Shown here: one piece after another, positions 3,878-21,286 of the stretch
Numbering within the stretch: the first letter of the stretch is position 1
Layout of the letters: every line of letters starts with the position of its first letter
Origin: Patescibacteria group bacterium
GTDB taxonomy: Bacteria > Patescibacteriota > Patescibacteriia > Patescibacteriales > UBA12465
Assembly: GCA_041661685.1 (NCBI GenBank)
Contig: JBAZTY010000003.1
Location: 69,550-133,549, forward strand
DNA length: 64,000 bases
Reading direction: 5' to 3'
Notes under the pieces: generated by a model
Databases searched by the model: none
Seen by the model: the letters and a program-made list of their open reading frames with translations, nothing else
Told to the model about the DNA's origin: nothing
Program-made: the position numbers and the translations under genes

Positions 3878-3890
3878 ACGTTCAAGTGAC

Positions 3891-3928: not shown

Positions 3929-3942
3929 TTCAAACTAATTTC

Positions 3943-5343: not shown

Positions 5344-5948
5344 TAGGCTTTATCCATCAGCCATTCGCCATTAACCTTTAAAAAACTGAGATCCAATTTT
5401 TGAGTAAATGGCTCGCCGCCGCCGATTTTTTCCGTGCTTTCGCGGCGTTCCGTCGTGACTATTATCTCGGCCGTACCAGCCTTATCATCAAAGCTCTTTA
5501 CTTCCGTCGTCAGCGCCTTGGCCGTAATGCCATAATAAGAATCAGACTTGGCGCTCGCTTTTTGTTCAGCGACATATTTATCGGCCCAGGCCTGCAGGCT
5601 GGCCGTCATATAAATCTTCAGATCGGTAAAATTGCCGTAATCGGATTGGGTCGAATAAGAGCCGAGGCGCTCCGCATAAGATTTGGAGCGCTGCGCTAAA
5701 TCGGTAGCGTTGACAGTATGGGTCGCCTCTTTAGTGACATCATACTGGGTATAATTGCGGGGCTGGTCGCTCGGAGTCGTCGTTCCCTTCTCTTCGCCCG
5801 CCGGTAATTGGCTAGTCGGGGTATCAGCCGGAAGCAAAGGCTCTTCGACGGCCGCTTTTTTCATGAAGACGAAATAGATGATGGCCACTATGACTAATAG
5901 TCCGAGAAGGACAAATAGGAGGCCGATGGTTTTACGGTTGGTTTGCAT
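5331..5948 (-). CDS. Hypothetical bitopic membrane protein: N-terminal TM plus an extracytoplasmic domain of about 170 aa. Candidate VirB8-like component (inference).
   Basis: 205 aa. Single N-terminal TM (IGLLFVLLGLLVIVAIIYFVF), then a Pro/Thr-rich linker and a compact soluble domain. Sits directly downstream of the VirB4-like gene. Confidence 0.4.
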   Translation of the reverse strand: MQTNRKTIGLLFVLLGLLVIVAIIYFVFMKKAAVEEPLLPADTPTSQLPAGEEKGTTTPSDQPRNYTQYDVTKEATHTVNATDLAQRSKSYAERLGSYSTQSDYGNFTDLKIYMTASLQAWADKYVAEQKASAKSDSYYGITAKALTTEVKSFDDKAGTAEIIVTTERRESTEKIGGGEPFTQKLDLSFLKVNGEWLMDKAYWEK

Positions 5949-5986
5949 ATTTATTTTTAATATTTATTTTCAAATTAATCTCGTCT

Positions 5987-7885
5987 TTATGCACTCGCTT
6001 CTTCCTGCCGGCTTTCATCGAATTCCTTCTTGGCTTCTTCGAGCTCAAGCAGCTGGCGCGGATCGGAAGTAATCAGCTGGTCTTCGGTGTAAGACGCGAC
6101 CGCTTTCATAGCCACGTGCTTATTGCCCGCGAAGAAAATGCCTTCGCCGACGCCGCATTCGAGCAACAGATATTTCTCACCTTCAGTTAGCATGAAAGTC
6201 TTCTGGATCAAGTCGATAGCCGCCGGAGACTGCTTAAATAATAATTGCAAAGAAGAATTATTAACGATCGCCTGGCCGTAAGGAGAGGTCAAGAAGTCAT
6301 TAACGTCCTGCGTAATAGTCGTGACGCCCAAATAATATTTACGGCAACGTTTAACGAGAGCGAAGATGAACTTAGCCGAATCTTCGTGCTGCATCATCCA
6401 CCAAGCTTCATCAATGACTAGGATGCGCTTCTTCATCTCGCTACGAACGACGTTCCAAATGTAATTGACGATAGTATAAATAGCAATCGGGCGGAGTTCG
6501 TCTTCCAAGTCGCGGACCGAGAAACAGACGAGCTGATTGCTCATCTCGACGTTAGTCTGGTTATTGAGTAAGCCGGCAAAAGTTCCTTCGGTAAACTTTC
6601 TTAAGCGCAGAGCCAGGTCAGACCCGCCTTCCATACCGTCTAGAATCTGCTCAAAATCGGCCATAATCGGAGCTTCAATCTTTGATAAGTCAGAGTCGGG
6701 AGTAATATCTTTCTTCGCGTAAGTTTCGAGTAACGCGCGATCAACGATAGAATCTTCGTCATAGCTCAGGTTGCCTAACATCAAGCGCACTAAGCCTTTC
6801 AAGGTAATAACGGCGCTGCGGATGATATCTTTGGGCTTGGCTTCTCCGCCGATAGAGCGCGGTAAATCGAACGGGTTAATCTTATTCTCAGAAGACAAGG
6901 AAATATTGATATAGGTGCCGCCGACCGCTTCCGCTAAATGCTTGTATTCATATTCCGGATCAATGACGATGACGTCGGTCCCGAGCATTAAGGAACGCAA
7001 AATTTCTAATTTGATAGCATAGCTCTTACCGGCGCCGGAGGTCGCAAAGACGACAGAGTTAGCATTCTGAAGGCTGAAGCGATCAAAAAGGATAAGGCTG
7101 TTATTATGGCGGTTAATGCCATATAAGATACCTCGGTCGCTCGTGAGTTCGCTGGAGATGAACGGGAAAGAAGAGGCAATTGGGGAAGAATTCATGTTGA
7201 AGGTAATATATAATTCATCGTCCCCTAAAGGCAGGGTGGAATTGAAGCCCTGTTCTGATTGATAATAAACGCGGCGGGAATAAACTAGGCGGGAGCCGAA
7301 AACATCCTCGACCTGATCGCTTAAACGGTCCAGATCTTCAAGTTTATCGGCATAGATGGTGACATACAAAGCGAATTGAAAAAATTTCTCCGTTCCCTGA
7401 GTAAGCGCATCGCGCAAGTATTCAATATCGCGCAAAGCAGTTTCGCGCAATGGGTCGCGGGCGGCTCCCTTCTCTGCGTCAGAAACGATCTGCGCTTCCA
7501 GGGCGCCGACTTTATTCTTAAGTTGCTTCAAGATAATCGCGCTCTTAACTTGATAGAAGAACATCGAGACATCAAAGGTCACGTTCAGATTGATAATCGG
7601 CGCGAACCAGCCGACGGAGATATAGCGCGGATAAGAGACGATGAAGATGGTGCGCAAGAATTTATTGCCCAAGGCGAGATGATTAGCCTCGACCTTGAGG
7701 CTAGCGGGCGCGATAATATCGCGGACGGATAAGACGCCGCGGCGGAAGGCCTTCTCTTCTTCGATGATTTCCCGAGTCAATTCCGGGTTCTCCTCGATTG
7801 GGTGCGCCACGGGCTTAACCCCGATGGTAATCGGGGTATTGAGGCCTATCTTGGCCTTTTCTTCTTTTTTGCTGAAATCAATCAT
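5987..7885 (-). CDS. virB4: VirB4/TrbE/TraC-family conjugative ATPase, ATPase portion; N-terminal domain is in the upstream in-frame ORF
   Basis: 632 aa. Walker A VVFATSGAGKSYAI and Walker B/DEAW-type ILVIDEAWWMM. Architecture of T4SS VirB4 ATPases. Confidence 0.75.
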   Translation of the reverse strand: MIDFSKKEEKAKIGLNTPITIGVKPVAHPIEENPELTREIIEEEKAFRRGVLSVRDIIAPASLKVEANHLALGNKFLRTIFIVSYPRYISVGWFAPIINLNVTFDVSMFFYQVKSAIILKQLKNKVGALEAQIVSDAEKGAARDPLRETALRDIEYLRDALTQGTEKFFQFALYVTIYADKLEDLDRLSDQVEDVFGSRLVYSRRVYYQSEQGFNSTLPLGDDELYITFNMNSSPIASSFPFISSELTSDRGILYGINRHNNSLILFDRFSLQNANSVVFATSGAGKSYAIKLEILRSLMLGTDVIVIDPEYEYKHLAEAVGGTYINISLSSENKINPFDLPRSIGGEAKPKDIIRSAVITLKGLVRLMLGNLSYDEDSIVDRALLETYAKKDITPDSDLSKIEAPIMADFEQILDGMEGGSDLALRLRKFTEGTFAGLLNNQTNVEMSNQLVCFSVRDLEDELRPIAIYTIVNYIWNVVRSEMKKRILVIDEAWWMMQHEDSAKFIFALVKRCRKYYLGVTTITQDVNDFLTSPYGQAIVNNSSLQLLFKQSPAAIDLIQKTFMLTEGEKYLLLECGVGEGIFFAGNKHVAMKAVASYTEDQLITSDPRQLLELEEAKKEFDESRQEEASA

Positions 7886-7891
7886 ATTAGT

Positions 7892-8572
7892 TTATTTCTC
7901 TACCCTGAGCTTATCTAAATCGACTAATTCCTGATTCTGAGAGGTTTCTGGATTATATGTTTTATAATAAAGCTCAATTAAACTCTGGGTATCTAAGCGG
8001 GCCACGGCGACACCGAGAGATTCTAAGCCACCGGTAACGCTATCGATGCGGCGATCGAGCATCTCCTGATAATTCTTAAAAGTCTTGTCCTTGAGCTTAA
8101 TAACGGTCGCTGGCTTAAGCGCTTCGCTCAATAAGCTCATGAAGCCTTTATGCTTATCGGTCAGGGGATCATAAGGCACAATAACATAGAAACGCTTATT
8201 CATAATCTTGCCCAGCGAGGTCAATTCCTTGATGTATTCAATATAGTCGGCAGTCTGAACTTTCAATAATTTATTCATCTGCTCCTTCTCTTTGTTCTTT
8301 AAGTATTCCAAATAATTATTAATATCTAACTCGCGAGACTGGATAACAATCTGAAGCGTGAAAGTCAGGTTATTTAAGAAGCGGACATAAGAATCAATGA
8401 CTGCATTCTGTTCGTCTTCGCTCTTGAGCGCGAAATTAATACTGGAAACAAGAAGCACGGCGCGCAAAGTGCCGTCCTTCATCACGACGGTGTTATCCTT
8501 AATCTCGGCAATATTCAAATATTGCTGAGTGGAGGCGCTTATTTTATTCTTAGCCAAGCCTTTTTCTGACAT
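7892..8572 (-). CDS. VirB4-family N-terminal domain encoded as a separate ORF (split virB4)
   Basis: 226 aa. The motif ...DGTLRAVLLVSSINFALKSEDEQNAVIDSYVRFLNNL resembles the N-terminal region of Gram-positive VirB4 homologues. It is separated from the ATPase ORF by TAA plus 2 codons, in the same frame. Confidence 0.5.
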   Translation of the reverse strand: MSEKGLAKNKISASTQQYLNIAEIKDNTVVMKDGTLRAVLLVSSINFALKSEDEQNAVIDSYVRFLNNLTFTLQIVIQSRELDINNYLEYLKNKEKEQMNKLLKVQTADYIEYIKELTSLGKIMNKRFYVIVPYDPLTDKHKGFMSLLSEALKPATVIKLKDKTFKNYQEMLDRRIDSVTGGLESLGVAVARLDTQSLIELYYKTYNPETSQNQELVDLDKLRVEK

Positions 8573-8591
8573 AATTAAAATTTATCCTAGT

Positions 8592-9011
8592 TTATTCTCC
8601 TTTATAGCGTCCTTTGGTATCAACGACGAGCGCCAATTCGGCCAAGCGCGATTTCTTATACATTTTCGGAGCGACTATCGGCGCGACGGCCTTGACTTCA
8701 ATATTCGTTTCGCCGATTTCAGCAGCCATGATCCGATTATTCCATACTCTTATTCCGGGACGGCGCAAAGTCTGAAAAGCATTAAGCATAAAGAGATGGA
8801 AGGGGCGGCCGTTTATCTTAACGAAGGCGAATAGAGCAGCAAAGACGAGCGTCACGATACCGACGGTCAAGAACAAGGTAAAATCGAACAACTTGTAACT
8901 GATGCCGATGATAACGGCAGCGCCGAGAATAATCATGAATTGGCGCACGGTCAGAGGGCCGATAATCTTATTTTCGACGTCGATGAATTGAGGAACGGTG
9001 AACTGCTGCAT
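8592..9011 (-). CDS. PrgI/VirB3-like small membrane protein of T4SS
   Basis: 139 aa. DVENKIIGPLTVRQFMIILGAAVIIG followed by two TM helices. Position immediately upstream of virB4 is typical for VirB3/PrgI. Confidence 0.5.
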   Translation of the reverse strand: MQQFTVPQFIDVENKIIGPLTVRQFMIILGAAVIIGISYKLFDFTLFLTVGIVTLVFAALFAFVKINGRPFHLFMLNAFQTLRRPGIRVWNNRIMAAEIGETNIEVKAVAPIVAPKMYKKSRLAELALVVDTKGRYKGE

Positions 9012-9016
9012 ATATC

Positions 9017-10486
9017 TTAAAAAACTAACTTGCTATTTAAACTGACAATCGCTTCAATCTCATCCATGCTCAGATATTCCTGATTAGCAGCCTTGCGAGC
9101 TTCAGCTATCTGTTTCAGGGGCTGGCCTTTCGCGATTGCTTCTTGACCTAGACGCAGGTATAAACGGCTAACCGGACTCTGACGCCAAGCGCGAACGCCA
9201 GCAACCATCTTATCATAACCATCTTTCTCTAATAATTTTATTTTCGCGAAAACCTTAGAAGTTATTTCGGCTGGAGTCGTGCCGAGACGGCGGAAATTAA
9301 TTACATCCAAAAATTGCAATTCCTCAATCGGACCCATGACTTTCGGCATTGGCTTGATATCATGCATCTGCGGATGAGCGGCGGAGGAAGCAAGCGCTTG
9401 CTTGCCGGCTAAAGTACGGGCGGCAGCCATAGAAACTGGAGGCGTTGAAATAATCTTAGCGGCCGGAATAGCTGGAGCGAATTTAGGCGTAACAGGCGCA
9501 ACGGCTACAACTGGCGCGACTTCTTTATGCCCGCCAAAAAATTTCGTAAAGGCAGATTCATGCTTAACTGGAGCGATTTTAGGGGAAACAGGCGATATTT
9601 TCGGAGTGATTGGAACAATCGGAACGACCGGAGATACTTTCGGGGCGGTCGGAACAACAGGGGCTGGCGCAATCGGCTTAATTTCCGCAACTGGCTTATT
9701 CAAAACGACTGACTTAATTTCGGCTTTAACTTCCGGCTTAGGCAAATCTAACTGCGCCTCCGGCTTGGCTAATTCATGCTTCGTATCTAAAGGCGCTGGC
9801 ACGACAGACTTAGTCTCTCCTTTAGCTAGCGCTTGTTTTAAATTATATTCAGAACTTACCGGCGCAGCCTTATCAGCGCCGCCGATAATCTTATCTAATC
9901 GCGTCACCGGCGGCATGGAAACTGGAGCAGCTTGAGTAGTGACGGCTGGAGTAATCAATCCTTTAGAAATCCTGGTATCGCAGATCTTTAGGACGCGATC
10001 AATCTCCTCCGGGCTCAGATTCAGGCCTCCGATCTTAACGTCCTTAGATAAAGTATTACGCGTATCTATCTTACTCCTGATGCCGCGCGCGTACGTAGAA
10101 ACGATATTCTTAAAGCGGCTGATAGCGACAGCACTCGGCAGGACCAGACCCGCCTCTTTAATGACAACTTCAATATCCTTATCAAGATCTAAGGCGCGAA
10201 TCTCAGAAGTCAGTCCTAAATAATCAGCCATAGGCGCGAAGATCTTTTCCTTCAATTCTTTAACGAGCTGAGCGGCTGTTTCCGGGGTTAATAATAATTC
10301 TCCGGTCAAATAAGCTGGCAAATCCGAAAATTTCAGGCTCTTAACCATCAGTTTCATGATCACGATAGCTAAATCAACTTTATATTTCGTTTCTAATTCG
10401 GAAATAAGCGCCATCGCGGACGGCGAAGAAACCTGATCGCGCAGGTTTTTCGGAAGATTGTTGAATTGTTGTAAATAGTCGAACAT
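9017..10486 (-). CDS. Hypothetical protein with a central Pro/Val/Ala/Lys-rich low-complexity repeat region
   Basis: 489 aa with an N-terminal globular region. The central region (PVVPIVPITPKISPVSPKIAPV...) is encoded by imperfect direct repeats in the DNA, about 9470-9800. The C-terminal domain is conserved-looking. No TM helix. Confidence 0.5.
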   Translation of the reverse strand: MFDYLQQFNNLPKNLRDQVSSPSAMALISELETKYKVDLAIVIMKLMVKSLKFSDLPAYLTGELLLTPETAAQLVKELKEKIFAPMADYLGLTSEIRALDLDKDIEVVIKEAGLVLPSAVAISRFKNIVSTYARGIRSKIDTRNTLSKDVKIGGLNLSPEEIDRVLKICDTRISKGLITPAVTTQAAPVSMPPVTRLDKIIGGADKAAPVSSEYNLKQALAKGETKSVVPAPLDTKHELAKPEAQLDLPKPEVKAEIKSVVLNKPVAEIKPIAPAPVVPTAPKVSPVVPIVPITPKISPVSPKIAPVKHESAFTKFFGGHKEVAPVVAVAPVTPKFAPAIPAAKIISTPPVSMAAARTLAGKQALASSAAHPQMHDIKPMPKVMGPIEELQFLDVINFRRLGTTPAEITSKVFAKIKLLEKDGYDKMVAGVRAWRQSPVSRLYLRLGQEAIAKGQPLKQIAEARKAANQEYLSMDEIEAIVSLNSKLVF

Positions 10487-10536
10487 CTTTTTCTATTTTA
10501 ACATATTATGCCAAAAAGAGAAAGAAAAATAAGCGG

Positions 10537-11475
10537 CTAGAGAGTCGTTATCGGCCGGCTCTGAGTTATATAGAATTTGCCCTGTTTATAGGCCCATTCG
10601 ATGTCGCAGGGGAATTTATAATGCTTCTCGATACCGGCGCATATCTTGGCTAGTTCTACTATCTGGCGGCCATTCAATTTCTGCTTGGACTGTCCCGATT
10701 TAGCAATCGGAACCCATTTTGTTCCGCCGGCAGAGCCTTTGATAATCTGCTTGATCTGAGGAGCGACATTGATATCTACAAGAGAATAATCCCGCTTATC
10801 TAAAACATAAGCATCGGGAGTAATCGATCCGGAAACAATCGCTTCGCCCAAGCCATAACCGGCCTCAATTATCATCTGATTCTTGTCCTTCGTCACGGGA
10901 TGGACCGTAAAGGTAATGCCGGATATTTCCGAATCGACCATAACTTGGATCACGACCGCGACGCCGACTTTTGTCTTTAATAATTTCTTCTCGTGGCGAT
11001 AAAAGATGGCGCGGGGCGTGAATAACGAGGACCAGCATTTCTTAACATTGATCAATAGGGTCTTTTCTGTAGTATTTAAATACGTTTCTAATTCTCCGGC
11101 CCAAGAAGCCGACGAAGAATCTTCGGCCGTCGCGCTAGAGCGGACCGCAACGAACTTGGCTTTCAGTTTCTTAAAATCGCTGACAATATCTTTTTCTAAA
11201 TCAACTGGCATCTTGGCGGCGGCAATTAAGTTGCGAATTTTTGCGGAAGCGCCGTCGACGGAATTGATATCTTTATAATTTACTTTCTTTAGAATCGCTT
11301 CTAATTCTTGCGTTAGGTCAGTTTCAGCGAGAAAACGATTAAAAGCTGAGGCTAAAATAACGAAACCCGAAGGAACCGGAATCTTAGCTTTAGTCATTTC
11401 TCCAAGAGAAGCTCCCTTGCCTCCAGCTTCGGCAACAGAATTTTTAGTAATCCGACTAAATGGCTTAATATACAT
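10537..11475 (-). CDS. Stand-alone PEP-synthase / pyruvate-phosphate-dikinase N-terminal ATP-grasp (nucleotide-binding) domain protein
   Basis: 312 aa. Motifs AEAGGKGASLGEM, AVRSSATAEDSSSASWAGELETYLN and CDIEWAYKQGKFYITQSRPIT match the PPDK_N domain of PpsA and rifampin phosphotransferase. It has no phosphohistidine domain and no PEP-binding TIM-barrel domain. Confidence 0.8.
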   Translation of the reverse strand: MYIKPFSRITKNSVAEAGGKGASLGEMTKAKIPVPSGFVILASAFNRFLAETDLTQELEAILKKVNYKDINSVDGASAKIRNLIAAAKMPVDLEKDIVSDFKKLKAKFVAVRSSATAEDSSSASWAGELETYLNTTEKTLLINVKKCWSSLFTPRAIFYRHEKKLLKTKVGVAVVIQVMVDSEISGITFTVHPVTKDKNQMIIEAGYGLGEAIVSGSITPDAYVLDKRDYSLVDINVAPQIKQIIKGSAGGTKWVPIAKSGQSKQKLNGRQIVELAKICAGIEKHYKFPCDIEWAYKQGKFYITQSRPITTL

Positions 11476-11546
11476 ATCATTATTATTTACTTATATTAAT
11501 ATTAGCATAAAATAACCAAAAAATGTAATTAATCAGACTTAAATTA

Positions 11547-11575
11547 TTGACAAGATTACAATAATATTATAAAAT
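11547..11575 (+). promoter_or_regulatory. Sigma70-like promoter for the histidine-phosphatase gene (TTGACA, 15-17 nt spacer, TATAAA/TAAAAT)
   Basis: TTGACA at 11547-11552 with an AT-rich -10 at 11568-11575. The start codon is at 11656. Confidence 0.4.
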
Positions 11576-11655
11576 ATTAGAAATATTTAGAACTTTAATA
11601 ACAAACAAATCACCTCATAAACCTCTGGTCCCGTAGTTAACGGGTCTATTACTCG

Positions 11656-12255
11656 ATGAAAACTTTAGTAATAATCCGTCACGGACGGAAAGACGAAGAT
11701 GGAACTTTGGTCGATAAGGATCAGCTCGCTGAGATTGAAAACATCGGAATCGCCGGCTTGAATGATTTAGTCAAAAAACATCAAGGACTAGTCATCTTTC
11801 ATTTAGGTACCGCTATCGAAAGGACGGGGCAAACCATAAAAGCCTACGAAAGACATCTCGATATATCTAACGCGATTAATTCTTTCGGCGGCTACTTGCC
11901 GGCTGATGCCCGCTTAGGAAGCAATAAGATTTTTAAAGAATTCAGCGAGAATCCCGAAATCGTCAAAGAAGCGGAAAGGACTACTTGGTTCAATGCTTTT
12001 AGGAGATATAATCCGAAATTCATCGAGAAGATACAAATCAACATGCTCGATGCGATTACTGATATATTCTCGCGTGTCGATGACGGCAGCTTGGTTATCA
12101 GCGCTGGCCATACGCCCATGATCGAATGGCTCGCTCTCGGCATTGACGAGAACGACCATAAAATTTCTTGCAAAATTAAACTTAAGGAATTGACCGGCTT
12201 CATCTTTACTGAAGACAAGGGGCGCATCCAAGTTACAAGGACTATCGGGTTCTAA
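11656..12255 (+). CDS. Histidine phosphatase superfamily protein (SixA/phosphoglycerate-mutase-like; RHG motif)
   Basis: 199 aa. N-terminal IIRHGRK (catalytic RHG), ERTGQT (conserved Arg) and AGHTPMIEW (second catalytic His). Encoded convergently to the swivel-domain paralogs. Confidence 0.7.
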   Translation: MKTLVIIRHGRKDEDGTLVDKDQLAEIENIGIAGLNDLVKKHQGLVIFHLGTAIERTGQTIKAYERHLDISNAINSFGGYLPADARLGSNKIFKEFSENPEIVKEAERTTWFNAFRRYNPKFIEKIQINMLDAITDIFSRVDDGSLVISAGHTPMIEWLALGIDENDHKISCKIKLKELTGFIFTEDKGRIQVTRTIGF

Positions 12256-12281
12256 ATGAACCGAATTAAAGAAATTAAAGA

Positions 12282-12310
12282 AACCGACACCAAAAGTGCC
12301 GGTTTTTTAT
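12282..12310. terminator. Bidirectional terminator between the histidine phosphatase gene and paralog A
   Basis: 9-bp stem AACCGACAC/GTGCCGGTT with one mismatch, followed by a T-run; preceded by an A-rich stretch. Confidence 0.5.
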
Positions 12311-12311
12311 T

Positions 12312-14207
12312 TTATTTTATTATCCTCACTATTCCTTTATCCGCATCGACTTCGACGAGGTCGCCATCTTTCAGGACTTTAGTCGCGATCCTGGTGGCGA
12401 TGACGCAAGGCACGTTCATTTCACGAGCGACAATAGCCGCATGCGAAGTTACGCCGCCTTGGTCGGTCACGAAAGCTCCGGCTTTTTTCATAGCCGGCAA
12501 TAAATCCGGCTGCGTCGAGATAGAAACGAGGATATCCCCCTTCTTCATCTTTTCCATATCGCGGATAACATTAACGATCCGAACGATCCCCTTGGCTTGT
12601 CCGCGGCAACCGCATTGCCCTTTCAGCTCTGAAACTTCCCTGCTCTCGTCTTTCTGGATATATTTCTTGATTATCTGCTCGGCTGCACGGCCGCTATAAT
12701 AAACTTCGGTGTCTTTGGCCGTATAATACAAGCTGAGCTTAGCGCGAGATTTTATCTCTTCCTTGTCCGATTGATGATCGAACAGAGCTGCTTTTATCTC
12801 CTTCGAAGTCATGAATCTCGTTTCTTTCAGGCTCAAACCAATACGCCGAGCTATCTCCTCTAAGAAGAAAGTCGTCTTATAAAGAGCGAAGAGCTGGGCA
12901 TAGCGGCGATATATCTTCGTCACCATGAAATCGCCCCAGGCACCGAAAAAACGAGTCGTCTTTTTTGATAGGCTTATTTTTTTGATGAGAGCCTGTTTAT
13001 CTGCCAGTACCATCTTTATCTTTTTCTCTTGGTCTCCATAGGTTTTCTTGAGGTTATTGTCTCCATTAACCAAGCGGACTAACTCTTTCAGATAATGCTC
13101 AAAATTATAGACGCCCTGCTCTTCAGTATAAATGAACTTGGTATAGAAATACTTGGCATAATGCTTCTGCAGATCATTCAATATTTTCTTATTGATCCGG
13201 TTCTTGAGAGTCCGGACGACCTCCTCGAATTTATCCTCATACTCTTTACTATGAGTATACAGGCCGAGAAATTTAACATCTTCTTCTTTGAACTTCCTGA
13301 ATAATTCCTTGAAAATGGAAAATTGCTTAGGATCAGACTGGACAGCAATACCGATCTTAATCAGAGCATCTTGCTCTTCTTTCAAGAGCGAATCCTGTTC
13401 CGGCTGAGTAAGCAGGGCGAGATATTCCTCAATTTTCGCAGCCGGAGCCTTCAGTTCTCTTAGCATCTGCTTGCCGCGATTAGTCAGATTATCGCCGAAC
13501 ATGTCAGCGGCCACCGGGATCCAGCCCCATTGATAATATTCCTGATGCACTTCTTCATGCTCCTTATAGTAGCGCCACAGCTTCTCTGAAGATACCTTAT
13601 CCAGACCGCTTTCAGGAATCTTAGCGACCGTAGCGACTAGCTTATCGGCGAAAAGTCTTATCTGAGAATTAACCTCTTCCATGAAATCGACGTCGCTCTC
13701 GAACTTGTCGACTAAATGGTCGCCTACGGCTTGCGCGTCCTGCTTATCAAAATAGAACCAGAGATGATAGCCCCGATAAACGCAAGCTTGATGCTGATAA
13801 GCTTTCCCGCCTGGCTGAGCGAATTGATTCGTAAAGCAATAAAAAGGGATGGCCATGAACCAGGGGTTAGCGTTGATGATCTCTTCGGCTAACAGCCATT
13901 CACGATTAAATATCTTCTCGACTTCTGCGCCTTTATTCTTCTGGAAAAGATTGATAAGCTCCGGCCCGATCGCATAATCGGTATTGAAGGAATAGCTTTT
14001 CTTCCTATTTTTAAGTTCTTGCGCGATTATGCCTTCCTTAATCAGCTTATCCAGTTCGCGGGTGATATTGGCCGCATCTTTCTTGACAGCCTCTCTTATT
14101 TCTAAAAAATAAAAAGACCGCTTCGGGCTGGCGGTCAGAAGCATCAATATCTCATAAGCGGTCTGCGATTTGAATAGATTCTTCATATATATATGTCTTG
14201 AAGACAA
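12312..14207 (-). CDS. PEP-utilizing-enzyme mobile (phosphohistidine swivel) domain protein, paralog A. Has an N-terminal winged-helix-like segment and a large helical domain.
   Basis: 631 aa. The C-terminus GGVTSHAAIVAREMNVPCVIATRIATKVLKDGDLVEVDADKGIVRIIK matches the PEP-utilizer swivel domain with the catalytic His. The N-terminus (TAYEILMLLTASPKRSFYFLEIREAV...ITRELDKLIKEGII) is wHTH-like. Confidence 0.7.
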   Translation of the reverse strand: MSSRHIYMKNLFKSQTAYEILMLLTASPKRSFYFLEIREAVKKDAANITRELDKLIKEGIIAQELKNRKKSYSFNTDYAIGPELINLFQKNKGAEVEKIFNREWLLAEEIINANPWFMAIPFYCFTNQFAQPGGKAYQHQACVYRGYHLWFYFDKQDAQAVGDHLVDKFESDVDFMEEVNSQIRLFADKLVATVAKIPESGLDKVSSEKLWRYYKEHEEVHQEYYQWGWIPVAADMFGDNLTNRGKQMLRELKAPAAKIEEYLALLTQPEQDSLLKEEQDALIKIGIAVQSDPKQFSIFKELFRKFKEEDVKFLGLYTHSKEYEDKFEEVVRTLKNRINKKILNDLQKHYAKYFYTKFIYTEEQGVYNFEHYLKELVRLVNGDNNLKKTYGDQEKKIKMVLADKQALIKKISLSKKTTRFFGAWGDFMVTKIYRRYAQLFALYKTTFFLEEIARRIGLSLKETRFMTSKEIKAALFDHQSDKEEIKSRAKLSLYYTAKDTEVYYSGRAAEQIIKKYIQKDESREVSELKGQCGCRGQAKGIVRIVNVIRDMEKMKKGDILVSISTQPDLLPAMKKAGAFVTDQGGVTSHAAIVAREMNVPCVIATRIATKVLKDGDLVEVDADKGIVRIIK

Positions 14208-14251
14208 TAATTATTGTCTATAAGACAATATTATCACGGAAAATAATCCTG

Positions 14252-15838
14252 TCAACCTTTTTTCTTCTTCATTAAACGCACTATTCCCTGCTCCGCGTCC
14301 ATCTCTACCGAATCGCCATCGCGGAGAACTTTAGTCGCCACCTTAGTGCCGACGATACACGGAATCCTTAATTCTCTGGAAACGATAGCAGCATGGCAGG
14401 TAATGCCGCCAGCGTCAGTAATGATTGCCGCCGCCCTCTTCATAGCCGGAACCAAATCCGGCGTAGTTGCTATTGAGACCAAGATATCGCCCTTCTTCAT
14501 CTTAGGAATATCGCTAGGAATATTAATGACTTTGATCGCGCCCCTAGCCTTGCCAGGAAAAGCACAGTCACCCGACAGTGAATTGACATTCTTGATATTC
14601 TCTCTGATGATATTCAGGCGAGCTGATATCTTTCTCGCTTCTGCTCCGCTCACATTCAGATCATCCTTGAAATCCCCGACAGAATAATACAGATTGAACT
14701 TATATCTTTCATTCAAGATAGCAACATCAAAATTATTGCCCAAGAGGAGCTCCTTGAACTCATGCGGATAAAGATAGCGGACTTGGCGGATAGCCAGATA
14801 GCGGCGGCGGCCGATTTCCTTGAATAATCTCTCGACTATCGACCAGCTATGAAACATGGAATCCTTTCTAGCCCCCTTGGTAAACACGAGATTCCTAGCA
14901 AAAGCTAATATCTCTTCGTGCTTCTTATCTATCTTGAGGTCGCGGACTAATTTCTTCTGCCTATTCAATATTTCTTGCCGACCAGCTTTCACGCCTTGCA
15001 GGGACTTCTTGGGATTCACACCCTGCCTGACCAAACTTGATAAGATATCGATAAAATACTCTCTTCCCCAAGACGGCCCGACCATGCCATAACCGAGCCA
15101 GCCGAAAGCTTTGGCATGTCGGCTAATCATCAAATCTAATCTCTTATCTAATTTTGACAATTCCCTGTCAATATCTTCGACGCCATGCTTGGCAAAGATT
15201 TTCTTCAAAGCCGGCTTACTAATGATGTGCCCCAATATCGACAGAAGTTGTTTATATTCTTCAGAGGCCTTAGCGTCCCTAGTCGGCGTCGTGAGAGTAG
15301 AGAAAGCTTCACCCAAAGAATAGTCTTGACCGGCAATCCTATCTTTGAGGTAATTCCTCAGATATTTAGAGAGGATATTTTCCCCAAAATCAGCCGCCGT
15401 CTGCATCCAATGAAGGACATGCAAGCGGCTATAGATAGCATAGTATTCATCATAAACCTTGAATAATTCCTTGTCGGAGAGCTTGGTTAAATTTATCTTC
15501 TTCAAGCTGTCAGAGGCGCGATATAGTTCGCCTTCTGCTTTTTCAAGATCTTTAAAATAACGATCGCCCCATTTCTGGTTCTTCTTAATATTCTCCAATA
15601 GCTCCAAGCCGATCTCTTTGAATTCCTGCCGAGCCACTAGCAACTGGCAGATATTATCTTGAAAGATCATTGCCAGGCATGGCATCTTTCTTTTAAAGCC
15701 ATAACTTTTAAGAAACCTATTCGCCCGGGCCGTATTCCAAGCAATACCAGCCATCATTGGATAATAATTCGGCATTTCCTCCATACAGAAGAGTTCTTGG
15801 CGGCTGACGGAAATATTTTTACGCTTACGGCTGTTCAT
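14252..15838 (-). CDS. PEP-utilizing-enzyme mobile domain protein, paralog B
   Basis: 528 aa. C-terminus GGITCHAAIVSRELRIPCIVGTKVATKVLRDGDSVEMDAEQGIVRL. The N-terminal helical domain shares the FGWLxY...G motif with paralog C. Confidence 0.7.
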   Translation of the reverse strand: MNSRKRKNISVSRQELFCMEEMPNYYPMMAGIAWNTARANRFLKSYGFKRKMPCLAMIFQDNICQLLVARQEFKEIGLELLENIKKNQKWGDRYFKDLEKAEGELYRASDSLKKINLTKLSDKELFKVYDEYYAIYSRLHVLHWMQTAADFGENILSKYLRNYLKDRIAGQDYSLGEAFSTLTTPTRDAKASEEYKQLLSILGHIISKPALKKIFAKHGVEDIDRELSKLDKRLDLMISRHAKAFGWLGYGMVGPSWGREYFIDILSSLVRQGVNPKKSLQGVKAGRQEILNRQKKLVRDLKIDKKHEEILAFARNLVFTKGARKDSMFHSWSIVERLFKEIGRRRYLAIRQVRYLYPHEFKELLLGNNFDVAILNERYKFNLYYSVGDFKDDLNVSGAEARKISARLNIIRENIKNVNSLSGDCAFPGKARGAIKVINIPSDIPKMKKGDILVSIATTPDLVPAMKRAAAIITDAGGITCHAAIVSRELRIPCIVGTKVATKVLRDGDSVEMDAEQGIVRLMKKKKG

Positions 15839-15851
15839 ATGTTTAGCAAAA

Positions 15852-17363
15852 TTATCTTATCCTCTTTATCACTTTTACTATTCCTTTTCTGGCGTCGACT
15901 TCTACTATATCGCCGTCTTTCAAAATTCGCGTAGCGATTTTTGTGCCGATAATGCAGGGAATCTTCATCTCCCTAGAGACGATAGCGGCATGGCAGGTGA
16001 CTCCGCCGGCATCAGTAATGATAGCGCTAGCGCGATTCATGGCCGGCACCAATGACGGATTAGTAGAAAAACTAACTAGAATATCACCTTTGTTAAATTT
16101 CTTAATATCGGCAACAGCATTGATAATCTTGACTGCGCCCCGCACGCGACCAGGAAAAGATACTTGGCCGGTAAAAATATCCACATTAGTCTTGATGAGT
16201 TTCGGCATCTGCATATATCTAACCATACTTTCAGCTTCTTTCCCTACCAAGACACGGCTTTTACCCTTAATAGTTACGAAAGCGGAAAGATGGAATCTCT
16301 CGGGCAATTCTTCAGCTCTCGGCCGGCGCCCAGAACGCAAGAATCCTCTAATTTCTTCTGGGGTCAAATATTTCGCTTGTGTCTGAGAACAGAAAAGACG
16401 GCGCCCTAATTCTGTAAACCATGAGCTCATCGCATAATTCAGATAATATATCTGCATCTCTTTGCGCAATTCCTTGATAAAAGAAAATTCGCGCAATAGG
16501 CGGATGTCATGACGGGCGGAAACCGATAACGAACTTTCAATCCTCTTCTGCCAAGCGCCTAATTTTTCCCTCTCTCGCTTATTAGCCGACAGGATCTTTC
16601 CCGCTTTATCTCCTGCCCTGCCTTTCAATAATTCGAAATAATACTCTGGTCCGGCAGCCTGGCCGTCATAATAATATTGCAGCCAGCCGAAGCGCCTAGA
16701 CAATGATTGCAGCTGGCGGCGCTGAGAAATATTATCCAGGTTAGCAAGCTTCGAAGCTCTTTTAAAGGCGCGCCATAGCTTCGGCTGTCTCTGCCAGCGC
16801 GCCAATAATCCCAAAGCTGCCTCAGCTTCACGGCGGACATAGGTGGCTTTGAGAGGAGTTAATAAGCGGCTAAAAATTACGCCAGGATCGCCAAAAGCAG
16901 ATAGCGAGCCGCGAATATTTTTCTCTACGAACACAGAATATTTATTATCGCCCATGTCCACATATTGCGGGATAGCAGACCAATCAGCTATCTCCAGCCA
17001 GATACGACAAAAATCGTCATAAATCTTGCTTAATCCACGCGGTGACATCTTTTTTAAATCTTTGTGCTTGAGGCTAGAGACAAATCGTTTAATTTTAGCA
17101 AAACCAATATAATGCTGCCGCACTATTTCTTCCGCCAAAGTTGAGTCAGCCTGCAAGCGCGGCAAAAAATAAGCGCCAGCGGCGGAAAATTGGCTAGCAT
17201 CCGGAGCCCAGAGCGCCTTACCTTCCTGAAAAATGAATATAGAATCGATAAATATCTTCCCTTTGGTCTTCAAACGCAGATCATAAAAAGTCTTATTCCA
17301 AAGGAGCCAAGGATGCGGCGGCACGTTATAATCTTCCGTAAAGAGAGTAAATTTTTTGGACAT
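15852..17363 (-). CDS. PEP-utilizing-enzyme mobile domain protein, paralog C
   Basis: 503 aa. C-terminus GGVTCHAAIVSREMKIPCIIGTKIATRILKDGDIVEVDARKGIVKVIK. N-terminal domain is homologous to paralog B. Confidence 0.7.
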   Translation of the reverse strand: MSKKFTLFTEDYNVPPHPWLLWNKTFYDLRLKTKGKIFIDSIFIFQEGKALWAPDASQFSAAGAYFLPRLQADSTLAEEIVRQHYIGFAKIKRFVSSLKHKDLKKMSPRGLSKIYDDFCRIWLEIADWSAIPQYVDMGDNKYSVFVEKNIRGSLSAFGDPGVIFSRLLTPLKATYVRREAEAALGLLARWQRQPKLWRAFKRASKLANLDNISQRRQLQSLSRRFGWLQYYYDGQAAGPEYYFELLKGRAGDKAGKILSANKREREKLGAWQKRIESSLSVSARHDIRLLREFSFIKELRKEMQIYYLNYAMSSWFTELGRRLFCSQTQAKYLTPEEIRGFLRSGRRPRAEELPERFHLSAFVTIKGKSRVLVGKEAESMVRYMQMPKLIKTNVDIFTGQVSFPGRVRGAVKIINAVADIKKFNKGDILVSFSTNPSLVPAMNRASAIITDAGGVTCHAAIVSREMKIPCIIGTKIATRILKDGDIVEVDARKGIVKVIKRIR

Positions 17364-17375
17364 ATTTTAATATTC

Positions 17376-17786
17376 CTAAACTCGGCAAAAACTCGACTTA
17401 TACTTTTCCGGATGATGAGCCTTTAGCCTTTTTATCTTACAGAAAAAGCGAAATCCGGCGATTTCGCTTTTTAATTGCGGCAAATCAACTTGCTGATCAT
17501 AGCCTAAGCAGATTATCTCCGGACGATATTTTTTCAGGATAAGCCAGCGGTTCTTAAGATTTCCTAAAACAGCCCTCCCTGTTATACCCAGCTCTTTAAG
17601 GGCGCGTCTAACCTTACGCTGGCGAGTCTTCTCGTCATCTTGCGGCGCACGTTTCTTAATCGCCAAGACATTCTTGTCGCGAGCAATTATGACTATCAGC
17701 TCATCGCCAAAAAGGCGGGCCTGTTTGAAATAATCCAAGTGCCCCGGATGGAGATTATCGAATGTTCCGAAAGTCATGACGCGCAT
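17376..17786 (-). CDS. Cytidylyltransferase-family nucleotidyltransferase (TagD/RibL-like, HxGH motif)
   Basis: 136 aa. TFGTFDNLHPGHLDYFKQARLFGDELIVIIARD matches the (H/T)xGH nucleotidyltransferase fold. Ends 13 nt upstream of paralog C. Confidence 0.6.
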   Translation of the reverse strand: MRVMTFGTFDNLHPGHLDYFKQARLFGDELIVIIARDKNVLAIKKRAPQDDEKTRQRKVRRALKELGITGRAVLGNLKNRWLILKKYRPEIICLGYDQQVDLPQLKSEIAGFRFFCKIKRLKAHHPEKYKSSFCRV

Positions 17787-17834
17787 AATAGAGACAAAAC
17801 ACCACTCTTCACAGAGCGGTGTTTTTATTGTTCT

Positions 17835-18986
17835 TTATTTTATCGCCTTTTTCAATGCTGCGACCTTATCAGTCTTTTCCCATCTGAATTCTGGGCGACC
17901 GAAATGGCCGTAAGCCGCGGTCTTCAAGAAGACCGGCTTTCTTAATTCTAAGTGATCAATAATCGCTTTCGGGCGGAAATCAAAGACCTTCTCGATAGCC
18001 TTCAAGATATCTTCTTCCGCATATTTATTCGTGCCAAAAGTGTCGATATAGATGCCGACCGGCTTAGCGACCCCAATCGCATAAGCGACCTGGACCTCGC
18101 ATTTATCGGCTAATCCAGCCGCAACGACGTTCTTAGCCGCATAGCGAGCCATATAAGCGCCGGAGCGGTCGACTTTGGACGAATCCTTGCCCGAGAAGCA
18201 GCCGCCGCCATGACGCGCGACGCCGCCATAGGTATCGACAATGATCTTGCGGCCAGTCAGACCGGTATCGGCCGCCGGACCGCCGAAAGTAAAGGCGCCA
18301 GTAGAATTGATATAGACTTTAGTCTTCTTGTCCATTAATTTGCCTAAAACCGGCTTAATGACTTTCGCTAAGATATCGGCACGGACCTTAGAAAGCTTAA
18401 CCTTCTCGCTATGGCAAGCGGCGATAACGACAGTTTCGACGCGCTTAGCAATGCCGTCATGATATTCGACGGTCACCTGGCTTTTTCCGTCCGGTCTTAA
18501 ATAAGGCAGGGTTTTATTCTTGCGGACTTCAGCTAATCTAAAAGTTAATTTATGAGCCAAGGTTATCGGCAAAGGCATGAGCTCCTTGGTCTCGTTAGTT
18601 GCGAAGCCATACATCAAACCTTGGTCACCAGCTCCCTGCTCCTTGAATTCGCCTGCGCCCTCATCGACGCCTTGCGCGATTTCCGCGCTCTGCGCGTGAA
18701 GAGATGACATGATACCGACGCTGTCGCAGTCGAAGCCGGATTCAGCGCCGTTATAGCCGATGCTCTTCAAAACCTTGCGGACAATATCGTCAACTTGAAT
18801 ATACTCTTTAGTTCTGACTTCTCCGCCAACAACAATCATGCCGTTAGTGGCGAATGATTCCACGGCCGCATGGCTGTGCGGGTCTCTCTTTAACATCTCG
18901 TCTAAGATGCCATCGGAAATCTGATCGCAGACCTTATCCGGATGTCCTTCGGTAACAGATTCCGAAGTGATTAATTTTATGTTCAT
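17835..18986 (-). CDS. metK: S-adenosylmethionine synthetase
   Basis: 383 aa. GHPDKVCDQISD and the typical MetK domain order. Confidence 0.9.
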   Translation of the reverse strand: MNIKLITSESVTEGHPDKVCDQISDGILDEMLKRDPHSHAAVESFATNGMIVVGGEVRTKEYIQVDDIVRKVLKSIGYNGAESGFDCDSVGIMSSLHAQSAEIAQGVDEGAGEFKEQGAGDQGLMYGFATNETKELMPLPITLAHKLTFRLAEVRKNKTLPYLRPDGKSQVTVEYHDGIAKRVETVVIAACHSEKVKLSKVRADILAKVIKPVLGKLMDKKTKVYINSTGAFTFGGPAADTGLTGRKIIVDTYGGVARHGGGCFSGKDSSKVDRSGAYMARYAAKNVVAAGLADKCEVQVAYAIGVAKPVGIYIDTFGTNKYAEEDILKAIEKVFDFRPKAIIDHLELRKPVFLKTAAYGHFGRPEFRWEKTDKVAALKKAIK

Positions 18987-19043
18987 ATTTTTTGTTCCGC
19001 TGTGGTAACGGAGATAATTAAGTTATGTCCTGCTATCAAACTT

Positions 19044-20300
19044 CTAGGTTCCTGATTCCCAAGAAGACAGATAAGCAGCTTGTTCCGCGGTTAGCTTATC
19101 GATCTTGATGCCTAATGACTTAAGTTTCATCATCGCCACCTTCTTTTCAATCTTCTCGGAAACGTTATGGACTCTGACTTCTAATTTTCCGGCGCTCTTA
19201 GCGACGTACTCAGCTGCTAAGGCCTGGGTGGAAAAGCTCATATCCATGACGCTAGACGGATGGCCTTCGGCGGCGGCCAGGTTAATAAGGCGGCCCTGAC
19301 CAAGCACATAGATGCGCCTCTTCCCTAAGATATACTCGTCTACATTATTATTGACGTTATAATTCACCTTGTTAGCTAGTTTCTTTAGAGCCGGAATATT
19401 TATTTCCACATCGAAATGGCCGGAATTGCAGACCATAGCGCCGTCTTTCATGACCTTGAAATGCTCCTTATCGATCACCTTGAGGTCGCCCGTAATAGTA
19501 CAGAAGACGTCTCCGACTTTAGCCGCTTCTTTCATCGTCATCACTCCGAATCCGTCCATAGCGGCTTCAAGGGCCTTAATTTCATCGACTTCGGTCACGA
19601 TGACCTGGGCGCCCATGCCCCGAGCGCGCATTGCGAAACCGCGGCCGCACCAGCCATAGCCAGCCACGACGAAAACCTTACCGGCAACCAATAAGCCAGT
19701 CGCGCGGATGATGCCGTCGAGAGTCGATTGCCCAGTGCCGTAGCGGTTATCGAACATGTTCTTGGTCTTAGCGTCATTAACGGCGATGACCGGCAATAAT
19801 AATTTCTTATCAGCGGACAAAGCGCGCAAGCGGATAACTCCGGTCGTCGTTTCTTCCATGCTGCCCAAGATATCCTTAACCTGATGCTTATATTTATTAT
19901 GCAGGAGGGAAATTAAGTCGGCGCCATCATCCATCGTGATATTCGGGCGATTCTGCAGAGCCTGATTCAAATGAGAATAATAAGTCTTAGTGTCTTCGCC
20001 ATGGATAGCTAAGACCTTGATGCCATGGTTCTTCACTAAAGCCGCGGCGATATCGTCTTGCGTCGATAGCGGATTAGAGGCTACTAAAGTAATATCCGCT
20101 CCGCCAGCTTGGAGAGCCAGCATTAAGTTAGCTGTTTCCGCGGTTACATGCATGCAAGCCGAAACCCGCTTGCCCTTGAATGGCTTAGTTTTCTTAAAAT
20201 CGGCCTTAATGATTTCTAAAACCGGCATATCGCGACTAGCCCAAGCCAAACGCTTTTCGCCAATGGCAGCTAAATTCATGTCTTTTACGTGGTGAGTCAT
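19044..20300 (-). CDS. ahcY: Adenosylhomocysteinase (SAH hydrolase)
   Basis: 418 aa. NAD-binding GYGWCGRG and AhcY-typical N- and C-terminal regions. Confidence 0.85.
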
Positions 20301-20329
20301 ATTTATTTAAAATATTTTTAAGCTCTTAT

Positions 20330-21286
20330 TTATATCTTCAGACTTTCCTTATAATTCTCCTGATACCTTTTCTTAAGTTCCGCCAGACTGAATTGATGCG
20401 TCTGGGTGCCATATTTCTCAACCGTATAAACCGCCACTAGCCCAGCCAATTGACCGCAAGCCTTTAGATTATAGCCTTTTATCAGGCCTTTGATAAGACC
20501 GGCGCGATAGGCGTCGCCGGCGCCGGTCGGGTCCGAGGTATTCTTCGGTTTTGCCGGTTTAATCACTACCTTCTCCTGGCCTTGATATATTTCCGATCCC
20601 TTACCGCCCTTAGTTATTACTAATATCTCGACTAGTTTGACCAGCTGCGCCAAAGTTATCTTCATCTTATCGGCCATCAGTTTTATTTCATAATCATTGC
20701 CGATAAGCACCTTCGCACCCCTGACAGCTTTCTTAAGTTCCGCGGCCGAAAAAGCGATCAAAGCTTGACCCGGATCAAAGATATAGGGGACATGATGCTT
20801 CTGATAGGCGACCGCGTAGTCCAGCATCCGCTGTTTATCGTCAGGAGCGATAATAGCCAGATTAATCTCTTTAAAATTACAGGCGCGGCGAGCGTAATCT
20901 TTCGGGCGCGCTCCGGGATAAAAAGCGGCGATCTGATTATCGGCTTGATCGGTAATGATATAGGCTGTCGCTGTCCTATCGGTCGGAACAGTCCTGATTC
21001 GGCTAAGATCGGCGCCGCCCTTCTCTAGCCATTTGCGGTAGTCGCCAAAATCAAAACCGGCTACCCCTAGGATAATCGGTTTCTCTTGCAGCAGAGTTAA
21101 GTTATAAGCGATGTTTCCGGCCGTGCCGCCGAAGCTGCGGCGCAAGCCGCTGAGGAAGAAGCTTAAATTCAAGTTATGGATTTCTTTAGGCAGGATATGG
21201 TCTGAGAAACGTCCGGGAAAATCCATGATCTGGTCGTAAGCGAGCGATCCGGAAACAGCTATTTTTAATCTTTTATTTTTTAACAT
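20330..21286 (-). CDS. PfkB-family kinase. Adenosine kinase is the candidate, given adjacency to ahcY.
   Basis: 318 aa. GGTAGNIAYNL and C-terminal DPTGAGDAYRAG motifs of ribokinase/PfkB kinases. Confidence 0.65.
   Translation of the reverse strand: MLKNKRLKIAVSGSLAYDQIMDFPGRFSDHILPKEIHNLNLSFFLSGLRRSFGGTAGNIAYNLTLLQEKPIILGVAGFDFGDYRKWLEKGGADLSRIRTVPTDRTATAYIITDQADNQIAAFYPGARPKDYARRACNFKEINLAIIAPDDKQRMLDYAVAYQKHHVPYIFDPGQALIAFSAAELKKAVRGAKVLIGNDYEIKLMADKMKITLAQLVKLVEILVITKGGKGSEIYQGQEKVVIKPAKPKNTSDPTGAGDAYRAGLIKGLIKGYNLKACGQLAGLVAVYTVEKYGTQTHQFSLAELKKRYQENYKESLKI

Follow-up and report, generated by a model that had tools for sequence, protein, structure and literature searches.

Three two-component dikinases, PpsAB (phenylphosphate synthase), CreHI and HpeHI, have been characterised biochemically, and in each of them both components are required (PMC12167813). 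HpeI is an ATP-grasp protein like that of rifampin phosphotransferase (RPH) (PDB 9GOJ), while HpeH has been described as a homologue of RPH's swivel and rifampin-binding domains; HpeH alone moves phosphate between substrates, and mutation of its histidine abolishes activity (PMC12167813). Here we describe a related locus in a stretch of 64,000 nucleotides (the window) from contig JBAZTY010000003.1 of a Patescibacteria group bacterium, where a single gene for a 312-residue ATP-grasp protein lies close to three consecutive genes for acceptor-type proteins of 631, 528 and 503 residues. Taken together, the analysis makes it quite probable that these genes encode an RPH-type 'substrate, water dikinase' made of two components, with several acceptor enzymes sharing a single ATP-grasp protein. 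The window is chromosomal, as it holds rpoB, rpoC, leuS and two tRNAs. The features of the locus are:

10537-11475, minus strand: ATP-grasp protein (PPDK_N, PF01326), 312 residues, the proposed shared ATP-charging module
11656-12255, plus strand: histidine-phosphatase-fold protein of branch 1, 199 residues (AlphaFold2 and Foldseek)
12281-12305, minus strand: hairpin terminator closing the nucleotidyltransferase-paralog operon (11-bp stem and T-rich tail)
12312-14207, minus strand: acceptor paralog 1, subfamily c1, 631 residues, with a winged helix-turn-helix (wHTH), an RPH-like helical domain and a swivel domain
14252-15838, minus strand: acceptor paralog 2, subfamily c0, 528 residues, without a wHTH, with an RPH-like domain and a swivel domain
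15852-17363, minus strand: acceptor paralog 3, cluster c4, of the short variable type, 503 residues, with an RPH-like domain and a swivel domain
17376-17786, minus strand: cytidylyl/adenylyl-transferase-like gene (PF01467), 136 residues, at the head of the paralog operon
12324-17381: present/absent cassette of 5,058 bp (blastn against the related loci L005 and L006)
17796-17825, minus strand: hairpin terminator after metK, the upstream operon boundary (13-bp stem, consensus scan only)

Like HpeHI, CreHI and PpsAB, the window system has a separate ATP-grasp protein and acceptors in which a helical substrate domain precedes the C-terminal swivel domain and its histidine; the predicted chemistry, ATP + X + H2O -> AMP + Pi + X-P, is the same and phosphatases are found nearby in both. 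The characterised systems are, however, 1:1 gene pairs in aromatic-catabolism clusters, whereas here one ATP-grasp gene faces three acceptors (zero to nine in relatives), which form a cassette in a different transcription unit, and two of the Patescibacteria subfamilies carry a wHTH. In terms of sequence the acceptors of HpeHI, CreHI and PpsAB belong to PRK08296, among whose members an identity of around 45% has been reported. Its cut-off is 578 bits; the window paralogs reach 90-102 bits, and only through their last ~120 residues, so that they do not match it over their full length. A genuine PRK08296 acceptor is present at locus L087, on a plasmid of Natribaculum luteum (3006-4904; 730 bits), in a haloarchaeal 1:1 pair in an aromatic-catabolism setting, and the alignment of the Patescibacteria profile with this acceptor is confined to the swivel domain (132 columns). 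A methionine two residues before the catalytic histidine has been noted in the HpeHI homologues examined (PMC12167813), and the threonine in its place in the window paralogs was considered as a family marker. This was rejected: the L087 acceptor also has threonine (GGITSHAAIV), so the residue is not diagnostic and methionine is not universal in the PRK08296 subfamily.

RPH (5FBS, 5FBT, 5HV1) is the best structural match to the acceptors and the only full-length one, and their profile runs from the middle of its rifampin-binding domain through the swivel domain. Conservation extends to the basic phosphotransfer motif and to the catalytic residues of the ATP-grasp, and natural fusions with the RPH domain order exist (see below). 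In contrast to the single chain of ~865 residues in RPH the window system is split, the identity is only ~15% and the window proteins show no sign of rifamycin specificity; against the RPH model NF041857 the ATP-grasp protein reaches 274 bits and the paralogs 55-63 bits, far from the cut-off of 999. The ATP-grasp and swivel domains are closest in sequence to those of phosphoenolpyruvate (PEP) synthase, PpsA, and pyruvate phosphate dikinase, PPDK, with an identical motif around the histidine, but no TIM barrel is encoded nearby, the swivel domain lies on the C-terminal side of an unrelated helical domain, and the enzyme is divided between separate genes. The Patescibacteria system would therefore work like the known two-component dikinases but is a separate lineage, closer to the RPH type and with a different gene organisation.

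The first-pass annotation of this DNA took the division of such an enzyme over several genes, with three acceptor modules, to be undescribed. For the split itself this does not hold, as PpsAB, CreHI and HpeHI had already been characterised (PMC12167813). While split dikinases have been published, from phenol-degrading bacteria, the cassette in which one ATP-grasp protein is matched to many acceptors (zero to nine copies, and a natural 4:1 fusion) seems not to have been described. No description of acceptor arrays in Patescibacteria or the wider Candidate Phyla Radiation (CPR) was found in the literature, the coverage of which was incomplete, and an earlier description is possible; a survey of the CPR resistome gives rph-like genes only as counts.

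Domain organisation of the ATP-grasp protein and the acceptors

Pfam searches of the four proteins gave a single match to PPDK_N (PF01326), in the 312-residue protein (E = 1.5e-94, model positions 3-311 of 328). Residues 2-312 of this protein align end to end with residues 4-316 of the RPH ATP-grasp domain, and it also matches HpeI (9GOJ). Lys20, Arg112, Thr131 and Glu293 fall on Lys22, Arg117, Thr136 and Glu297 of RPH, which have been probed by mutagenesis (PMC4844700). The gene thus encodes a separate ATP-grasp protein of the RPH/PEP synthase type in which the residues that bind the nucleotide phosphates are intact.

The PEP-utilizers domain (PF00391), in turn, is confined to the C-termini of the three paralogs, with E values of ~1e-25 in each case: residues 555-625 of paralog 1 (12333-12545), 448-518 of paralog 2 (14285-14497) and 423-494 of paralog 3 (15882-16097). 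The catalytic motifs in the 631-, 528- and 503-residue proteins are TDQGGVTSHAAIVARE, TDAGGITCHAAIVSRE and TDAGGVTCHAAIVSRE (recorded also as GGVTSHAAIVARE, GGITCHAAIVSRE and GGVTCHAAIVSRE), and contain His589 (codon at 12441-12443), His482 (14393-14395) and His458 (15990-15992), respectively. PF02896, the PEP/pyruvate-binding barrel, is absent from all four proteins. Across all open reading frames (ORFs) of at least 90 residues in the 64-kb window and 84 related loci, a phmmer search with residues 471-792 of E. coli PpsA likewise matched only E. coli ppsA itself.

The three paralogs are ~29% identical overall, with almost all of this identity within the last 110 residues; the N-terminal domains (N-domains) alone are 22-24% identical to one another. 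An AlphaFold2 model of the 528-residue protein, built on 62 homologues, has a mean pLDDT of 92.4 and a pTM of 0.89 and is mostly helical, with the beta-rich swivel domain at the C-terminal end. When this model was compared with the PDB using Foldseek, the RPH structures 5FBT, 5FBU and 5HV1 came top (E ~1e-13, TM scores of 0.53-0.56) and RPH was the sole structure to align over ~580 columns. PPDK, pyruvate kinase and Enzyme I gave TM scores of at most 0.19, consistent with a match limited to the swivel domain. The relationship is also seen in sequence profiles, where the family profile aligns with residues 525-878 of RPH in hmmsearch and with Listeria RPH over 316 columns in hhalign (probability 99.0). 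Judging from the predicted fold and the profile, the N-domains are homologues of the RPH substrate domain, and the acceptors combine a fold like that of the rifampin-binding domain with a swivel domain at the C-terminus that bears a conserved histidine.

In RPH, Arg666, Glu667 and Lys670 are critical for the second phosphotransfer, as established by mutagenesis (PMC4844700). The segment Lys321-x-x-Arg324-Lys325 of the 528-residue protein falls on R666-E-Y-P-K670 of RPH, and in the register of this alignment, which is of ~20% identity, the basic residues Lys321 and Lys325 take the positions of Arg666 and Lys670, next to the more conserved Arg324, while a glycine takes that of Glu667. The basic motif is present in all three window paralogs (431-435, 321-325 and 297-301), together with shared conserved glutamate and arginine positions; the conserved residues are Lys431, Arg434, Arg435, Glu470 and Arg488 in paralog 1 and Lys297, Arg300, Lys301, Glu337 and Arg356 in paralog 3.

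The wHTH of the 631-residue protein gives a weak match to MarR (E = 0.004) and a stronger one to the PADLOC model PDC-M05A (E = 1.8e-13) over residues 8-94 (13926-14186). PADLOC matched this wHTH and no other protein, and a role in anti-phage defence was dropped as a specific hypothesis. Homologues of the acceptors carry HTH_5, HTH_20 and IclR-type HTH domains; the 528-residue protein lacks a wHTH although most c0 members have one. The 631-residue ORF begins with a TTG codon, with the nucleotides 14187-14207 preceding codon 8, and its exact sequence was not found in a collection of 15 billion proteins, in which the sequences of the other three genes are present. Translation probably begins at the ATG of codon 8, which gives 624 residues against a subfamily median of 626.

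The two kinds of protein can be linked through natural fusions. P0083 (859 residues; 43% identical to the 528-residue paralog) has PPDK_N at residues 17-323 and the swivel domain at 774-844, in the order seen in RPH, as has P0207 (808 residues). P0149 (2309 residues, gene L086:2012-8941) combines four swivel units with one PPDK_N at 1529-1802, and two to four units of N-domain plus swivel are found on the single polypeptides P0145, P0147, P0150, P0146, P0226 and P0149. The neighbours of the P0149 gene include Translin-, TrmB- and TGT-family genes. The two kinds of gene also occur together: among 39 loci from the genome collection where the ATP-grasp gene has at least 8 kb of sequence on either side, a paralog (one or more) lies within 10 kb of that single gene in 34, and this extends to 23 of the 25 loci without the lineage-specific synteny with type IV secretion system (T4SS)-like genes that is described below.

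These results bear out the domain reading of the first-pass annotation, in which the 312-residue gene was a lone PPDK_N, the three paralogs ended in histidine-bearing swivel domains behind divergent helical N-domains, in an order mirroring the C-terminal part of RPH, and the third domain of PpsA was missing from the window. Its suggestion of an ATP-grasp protein charging the acceptors in trans also stands, on inference from the RPH profile, the fusions and the conservation of the neighbourhood in relatives; what fell away was the novelty it had seen in the split.

Acceptor arrays and the cassette in related genomes

Each of the 84 related loci has exactly one ATP-grasp gene, while the number of acceptors beside it varies between zero and nine across the Patescibacteria loci. 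Nine paralogs are found at L001, seven at L002, three in the window and at L006, and none at L005, L015, L026 and L053. The window therefore represents a reduced array and not a fixed triplet; the multiplicity of acceptors claimed initially is real, and larger than was thought. The array occupies a slot with a conserved order of genes: PfkB, AhcY, MetK, the nucleotidyltransferase, the array, an antisense gene of ~200 residues and the ATP-grasp gene, followed by a gene of ~490-570 residues of unknown function and PrgI-, TraC-like and VirB4-like genes. Many of these loci that are clearly of the Patescibacteria type, L005, L008 and L014 included, come from third-party metagenome-assembled genome (MAG) records with the title 'uncultured Gammaproteobacteria bacterium', which looks like a placeholder or a wrong organism name.

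The 171 paralogs at 80 loci all have the catalytic histidine; grouped at 40% N-domain identity they give 98 clusters, none of which is represented twice in any locus. Since the N-domains of the window paralogs are also only 22-24% identical, recent tandem duplication was rejected as the origin of the triplet. Among the cluster representatives the mean column identity is 0.04-0.39 for the N-domain compared with 0.5-0.77 for the swivel domain. The two subfamilies with a wHTH, c0 (which includes the 528-residue gene) and c1 (the 631-residue gene), are conserved and single-copy, occurring at 15 loci each, and forms of ~475-510 residues make up the variable part of the arrays. An exhaustive search with the N-domain only gave 956 clusters at 50% identity.

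The behaviour of the array as a unit is apparent from a comparison with L005, where the ATP-grasp protein is 93% identical. By blastn this locus is colinear with 3889-12323 and 17382-21403 of the window and the segment between them is missing. The cassette so defined, 12324-17381, takes in the three paralog genes almost entirely; at 12324 it ends 12 nucleotides inside the stop end of the 631-residue gene (12312). The hairpin at 12281-12305 is directly 3' of the stop codon of this gene, and in the array-less L005 the same hairpin follows the stop codon of the nucleotidyltransferase gene. Within the window the nucleotidyltransferase gene and the successive paralogs are separated by gaps of only 12, 13 and 44 nucleotides.

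L006, on a complete chromosome of 895 kb, has an array block that is 95-100% identical to that of the window at the nucleotide level (blastn), with flanks that are 79-97% identical. Between 10537 and 21286 the synonymous divergence from L006 is 0.73 for the ATP-grasp gene, 0.31 for the 199-residue gene and 0.30 for metK, but only 0.05-0.12 for the three paralogs and the nucleotidyltransferase gene. This unevenness along the locus suggests that one of the blocks, the cassette or its neighbours, was recently exchanged by recombination or transfer, and is better taken as a lead than as a demonstration. Measured against the same orthologues, dN/dS is 0.037 for the ATP-grasp gene and 0.061, 0.149 and 0.093 for the 631-, 528- and 503-residue paralogs; constraint is strongest on the swivel domains (omega 0-0.02) and weaker on the N-domains (0.08-0.16). 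With close orthologues under purifying selection, the diversity of the acceptors seems to come from gene turnover and not from rapid sequence change.

Accessory and neighbouring genes

The interval 10537-17786 also holds the 199-residue gene (11656-12255, plus strand) and the 136-residue gene (17376-17786), both of which were missed in the first-pass annotation. The 199-residue gene is divergently oriented to the ATP-grasp gene and recurs antisense to it at ~17 loci. Searches with its sequence gave nothing reliable, Pfam His_Phos_1 being below threshold, but the AlphaFold2 model (mean pLDDT 92.3) gave 100 Foldseek matches at E <= 1e-3, the top ones all belonging to the histidine phosphatase superfamily and led by HFP, PhoE, phosphoserine phosphatase, RosC and PGM. 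Arg8, Arg56 and His152 are invariant or nearly so in the family and His9 is nearly invariant, so that the protein has both the alpha/beta fold and the RHG...R...H residues of branch 1. The same protein, at 100% identity, is encoded in a Patescibacteria MAG. On the basis of the model it is likely to be an accessory small-molecule phosphatase.

The 136-residue protein matches PF01467 (E = 8.6e-12), and its best solved relative is 3GLV, followed by TagD. The nucleotidyltransferase could act on the phosphorylated product; its gene stays in loci without an array and the link to the system is uncertain. At L001 and L002 the arrays have, between the paralogs, genes for an HD protein (~201 residues) and an HAD phosphatase (~203 residues), as well as a 288-297-residue protein with a weak match to His_Phos_1, which together with the ~200-residue antisense gene makes four phosphohydrolase-type genes per dikinase locus of this type. 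As clues to the substrate, the nucleotidyltransferase, HD and HAD proteins matched generic families only.

Directly downstream of the ATP-grasp gene, co-directional with it and with gaps of 5-50 nucleotides, is a block of four genes (5987-10486, minus strand) encoding a Pro/Ala-rich protein of 489 residues, which has no family match, and then PrgI-like (139 residues), TraC-like (226 residues) and VirB4/TraG-like ATPase (632 residues) proteins. The PrgI/TraC/VirB4-like block accompanies the ATP-grasp gene at 14 of the 39 loci, including those where the slot is empty. A functional link between the ATP-grasp protein and these T4SS-like genes was considered and rejected, the paralog link being found at 34 of 39 loci against 14 for this one, and we treat it as lineage-specific synteny. 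A terminator-like hairpin (10409-10425, minus strand; 7-bp stem with five GC pairs) lies ~60 nucleotides inside the predicted start of the 489-residue ORF; either the real start of this ORF lies further downstream than predicted, or the ATP-grasp transcript can terminate there. Close relatives of the ATP-grasp protein were not found on IMG/VR viral contigs.

Immediately upstream of the paralog operon are metK, ahcY and a PfkB-family kinase gene (17835-21286, minus strand), which together make a methyl-cycle and nucleoside-salvage block with conserved synteny in the closer relatives; the best match of the kinase is a nucleoside kinase, at 96 bits against a cut-off of 450. Further away, a 2741-residue ORF (26313-34538, minus strand) has as its sole family match a sub-threshold one to CBM_4_9 (E = 7e-4), and its neighbour, an ORF of 866 residues (22231-24831), has no family match.

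Proposed mechanism, alternatives and implications

By homology to RPH, PpsAB and HpeHI, the reaction would start with the binding of ATP by the 312-residue ATP-grasp protein. The C-terminal swivel domain of an acceptor would then dock on this protein such that His589, His482 or His458 could attack the beta-phosphate, with the gamma-phosphate lost as inorganic phosphate and AMP released. The phosphohistidine-bearing swivel domain would swing back to its own N-terminal helical domain, the homologue of the rifampin-binding domain of RPH, where the phosphate may pass to a hydroxyl-type substrate positioned by the K/R-x-x-R-K/R motif and the conserved glutamate and arginine. As the substrate domains are very different from one paralog to the next, each probably phosphorylates a different small molecule, while the high conservation of the swivel domain suggests that all of the acceptors can use the same ATP module. 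The acceptors, in the operon behind the nucleotidyltransferase gene, are acquired and lost as a cassette, and this turnover, with zero to nine copies at the same site, points to an accessory, niche-dependent function. Candidates for this are the capture of scavenged metabolites or the inactivation of toxic ones; the first-pass annotation had suggested that antibiotics or xenobiotics might be inactivated, or that the proteins might form a regulatory relay.

Several observations sit less comfortably with one ATP-grasp protein serving the array. Its gene is outside the paralog operon and heads a separate co-directional run with the T4SS-like genes. It also persists where the array slot is empty, at L005, L015 and L026, with the full 312 residues in all three, and at L053, where the ORF was called at only 259 residues; in such relatives it must have partners elsewhere or another role. 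Over its first ~200 residues the N-domain can be aligned with RPH by structure only, not by sequence, the family falls below the curated cut-off of every NCBIfam model, and two conserved subfamilies bear an N-terminal wHTH that would not be needed by a plain enzyme. The paralog counts, made within 10 kb on either side of the ATP-grasp gene, are furthermore lower bounds, and the MAG contigs may be incomplete.

The wHTH domains raise the question of whether the acceptors, or at least those of the c0 and c1 subfamilies, are ligand-sensing transcription factors, set by phosphorylation of their histidine from the ATP-grasp protein in a regulatory phosphorelay. The wHTH at the N-terminus of the 631-residue protein, the HTH_5, HTH_20 and IclR-type domains of homologues and the position of the two wHTH subfamilies as the conserved single-copy core of the arrays would all fit with this. 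Most of the paralogs (~475-510 residues) and the 528- and 503-residue genes of the window are, however, without a wHTH, and the family as a whole conserves the residues by which RPH positions the phosphate for its transfer to a substrate. A wHTH is also compatible with catalysis, as in the enzyme-repressor fusions BirA and NadR, and we regard a phosphorelay as unlikely. We would give just as little weight to a role in biosynthesis or the cell envelope, where a carbonyl or hydroxyl would be phosphorylated to drive a condensation, as by PigC and RedH, or a polymer would be phosphorylated, as by glucan water dikinase, and the nucleotidyltransferase would then make a product linked to a nucleoside diphosphate. 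The nucleotidyltransferase does head the operon and the larger arrays do hold the HAD, HD and second histidine-phosphatase-like genes, but the locus is without biosynthetic, glycosyltransferase or carbohydrate-binding genes, the nucleotidyltransferase persists without the array, and zero to nine copies with wholesale turnover fit a fixed pathway poorly.

In public annotation these proteins appear as 'pyruvate, water dikinase', 'phosphoenolpyruvate synthase/pyruvate phosphate dikinase' or 'PEP-utilizing enzyme', which would imply a genuine PEP synthase that has been disassembled and has its barrel encoded elsewhere. Consistent with these names, the best scores of the ATP-grasp protein (328 bits) and of the swivel domains (~120 bits) are against PEP synthase models, and the GGxT[S/C]HAAI motif of the swivel domains is of the kind found in PEP synthase. 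Full-length PEP synthase models are nevertheless all far below their cut-offs, the PF02896 barrel of a PEP synthase (TIGR01418/PRK06464) is missing, with no PEP-utilizers_C domain in the window or in the 84 loci, and an RPH-type substrate domain is joined to every swivel domain. A single central reaction would have no use for as many as nine different acceptors in a genome, and this explanation is very improbable. Decay of a former full-length enzyme into functionless remnants is harder still to credit. While the array is missing in some close relatives, all four genes are under purifying selection (dN/dS 0.04-0.15), which effectively refutes it, their domains are full-length with intact catalytic residues, and hundreds of conserved homologues exist. 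The case that had been named as fatal to the first-pass annotation, a 312-residue ORF that is merely a truncated pseudogene, fails in the same way, given its end-to-end alignment with RPH, its catalytic residues and its low dN/dS.

We therefore return to the two-component RPH-type dikinase with one ATP-grasp protein for several acceptors as the best explanation. A broader proposal, which we put forward only tentatively, is that of a modular toolkit in Patescibacteria and certain other uncultured organisms that have multi-unit fusions, where a single ATP-charging protein is combined with an exchangeable and diverse library of RPH-like enzymes, swapped as cassettes at a fixed slot, by which ultra-small host-dependent cells might irreversibly capture scavenged metabolites, or neutralise toxic ones, originating in their hosts and neighbours. 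Such a toolkit would provide a general design for small-molecule kinases, with one engine and many adaptors. Its logic resembles that of the phosphotransferase system (PTS), where Enzyme I and HPr serve many Enzymes II, in that one energy-coupling component supplies many substrate-specific phosphotransferases. The swivel histidine domain is of the same fold in both, but this is an analogy and not a homology of the whole systems: the donor here would be ATP, by way of the ATP-grasp protein, and not PEP, there is no HPr or Enzyme II, and the acceptors are soluble RPH-like proteins.

If the public annotation is taken at face value, a gluconeogenic PEP synthase will be falsely included in metabolic reconstructions of Patescibacteria. 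If one ATP-grasp protein does serve many acceptors, this would extend the recently defined subfamily of two-component dikinases from 1:1 catabolic enzymes to a multiplexed system. The roughly one thousand diverse substrate domains, as counted by the clusters at 50% identity, would be a resource for finding small-molecule kinases, possibly including ones that modify antibiotics. Up to nine genes of ~1.5 kb take up over 1% of a ~1-Mb genome, and an investment on this scale suggests that the system is an important part of the biology of these host-dependent bacteria.

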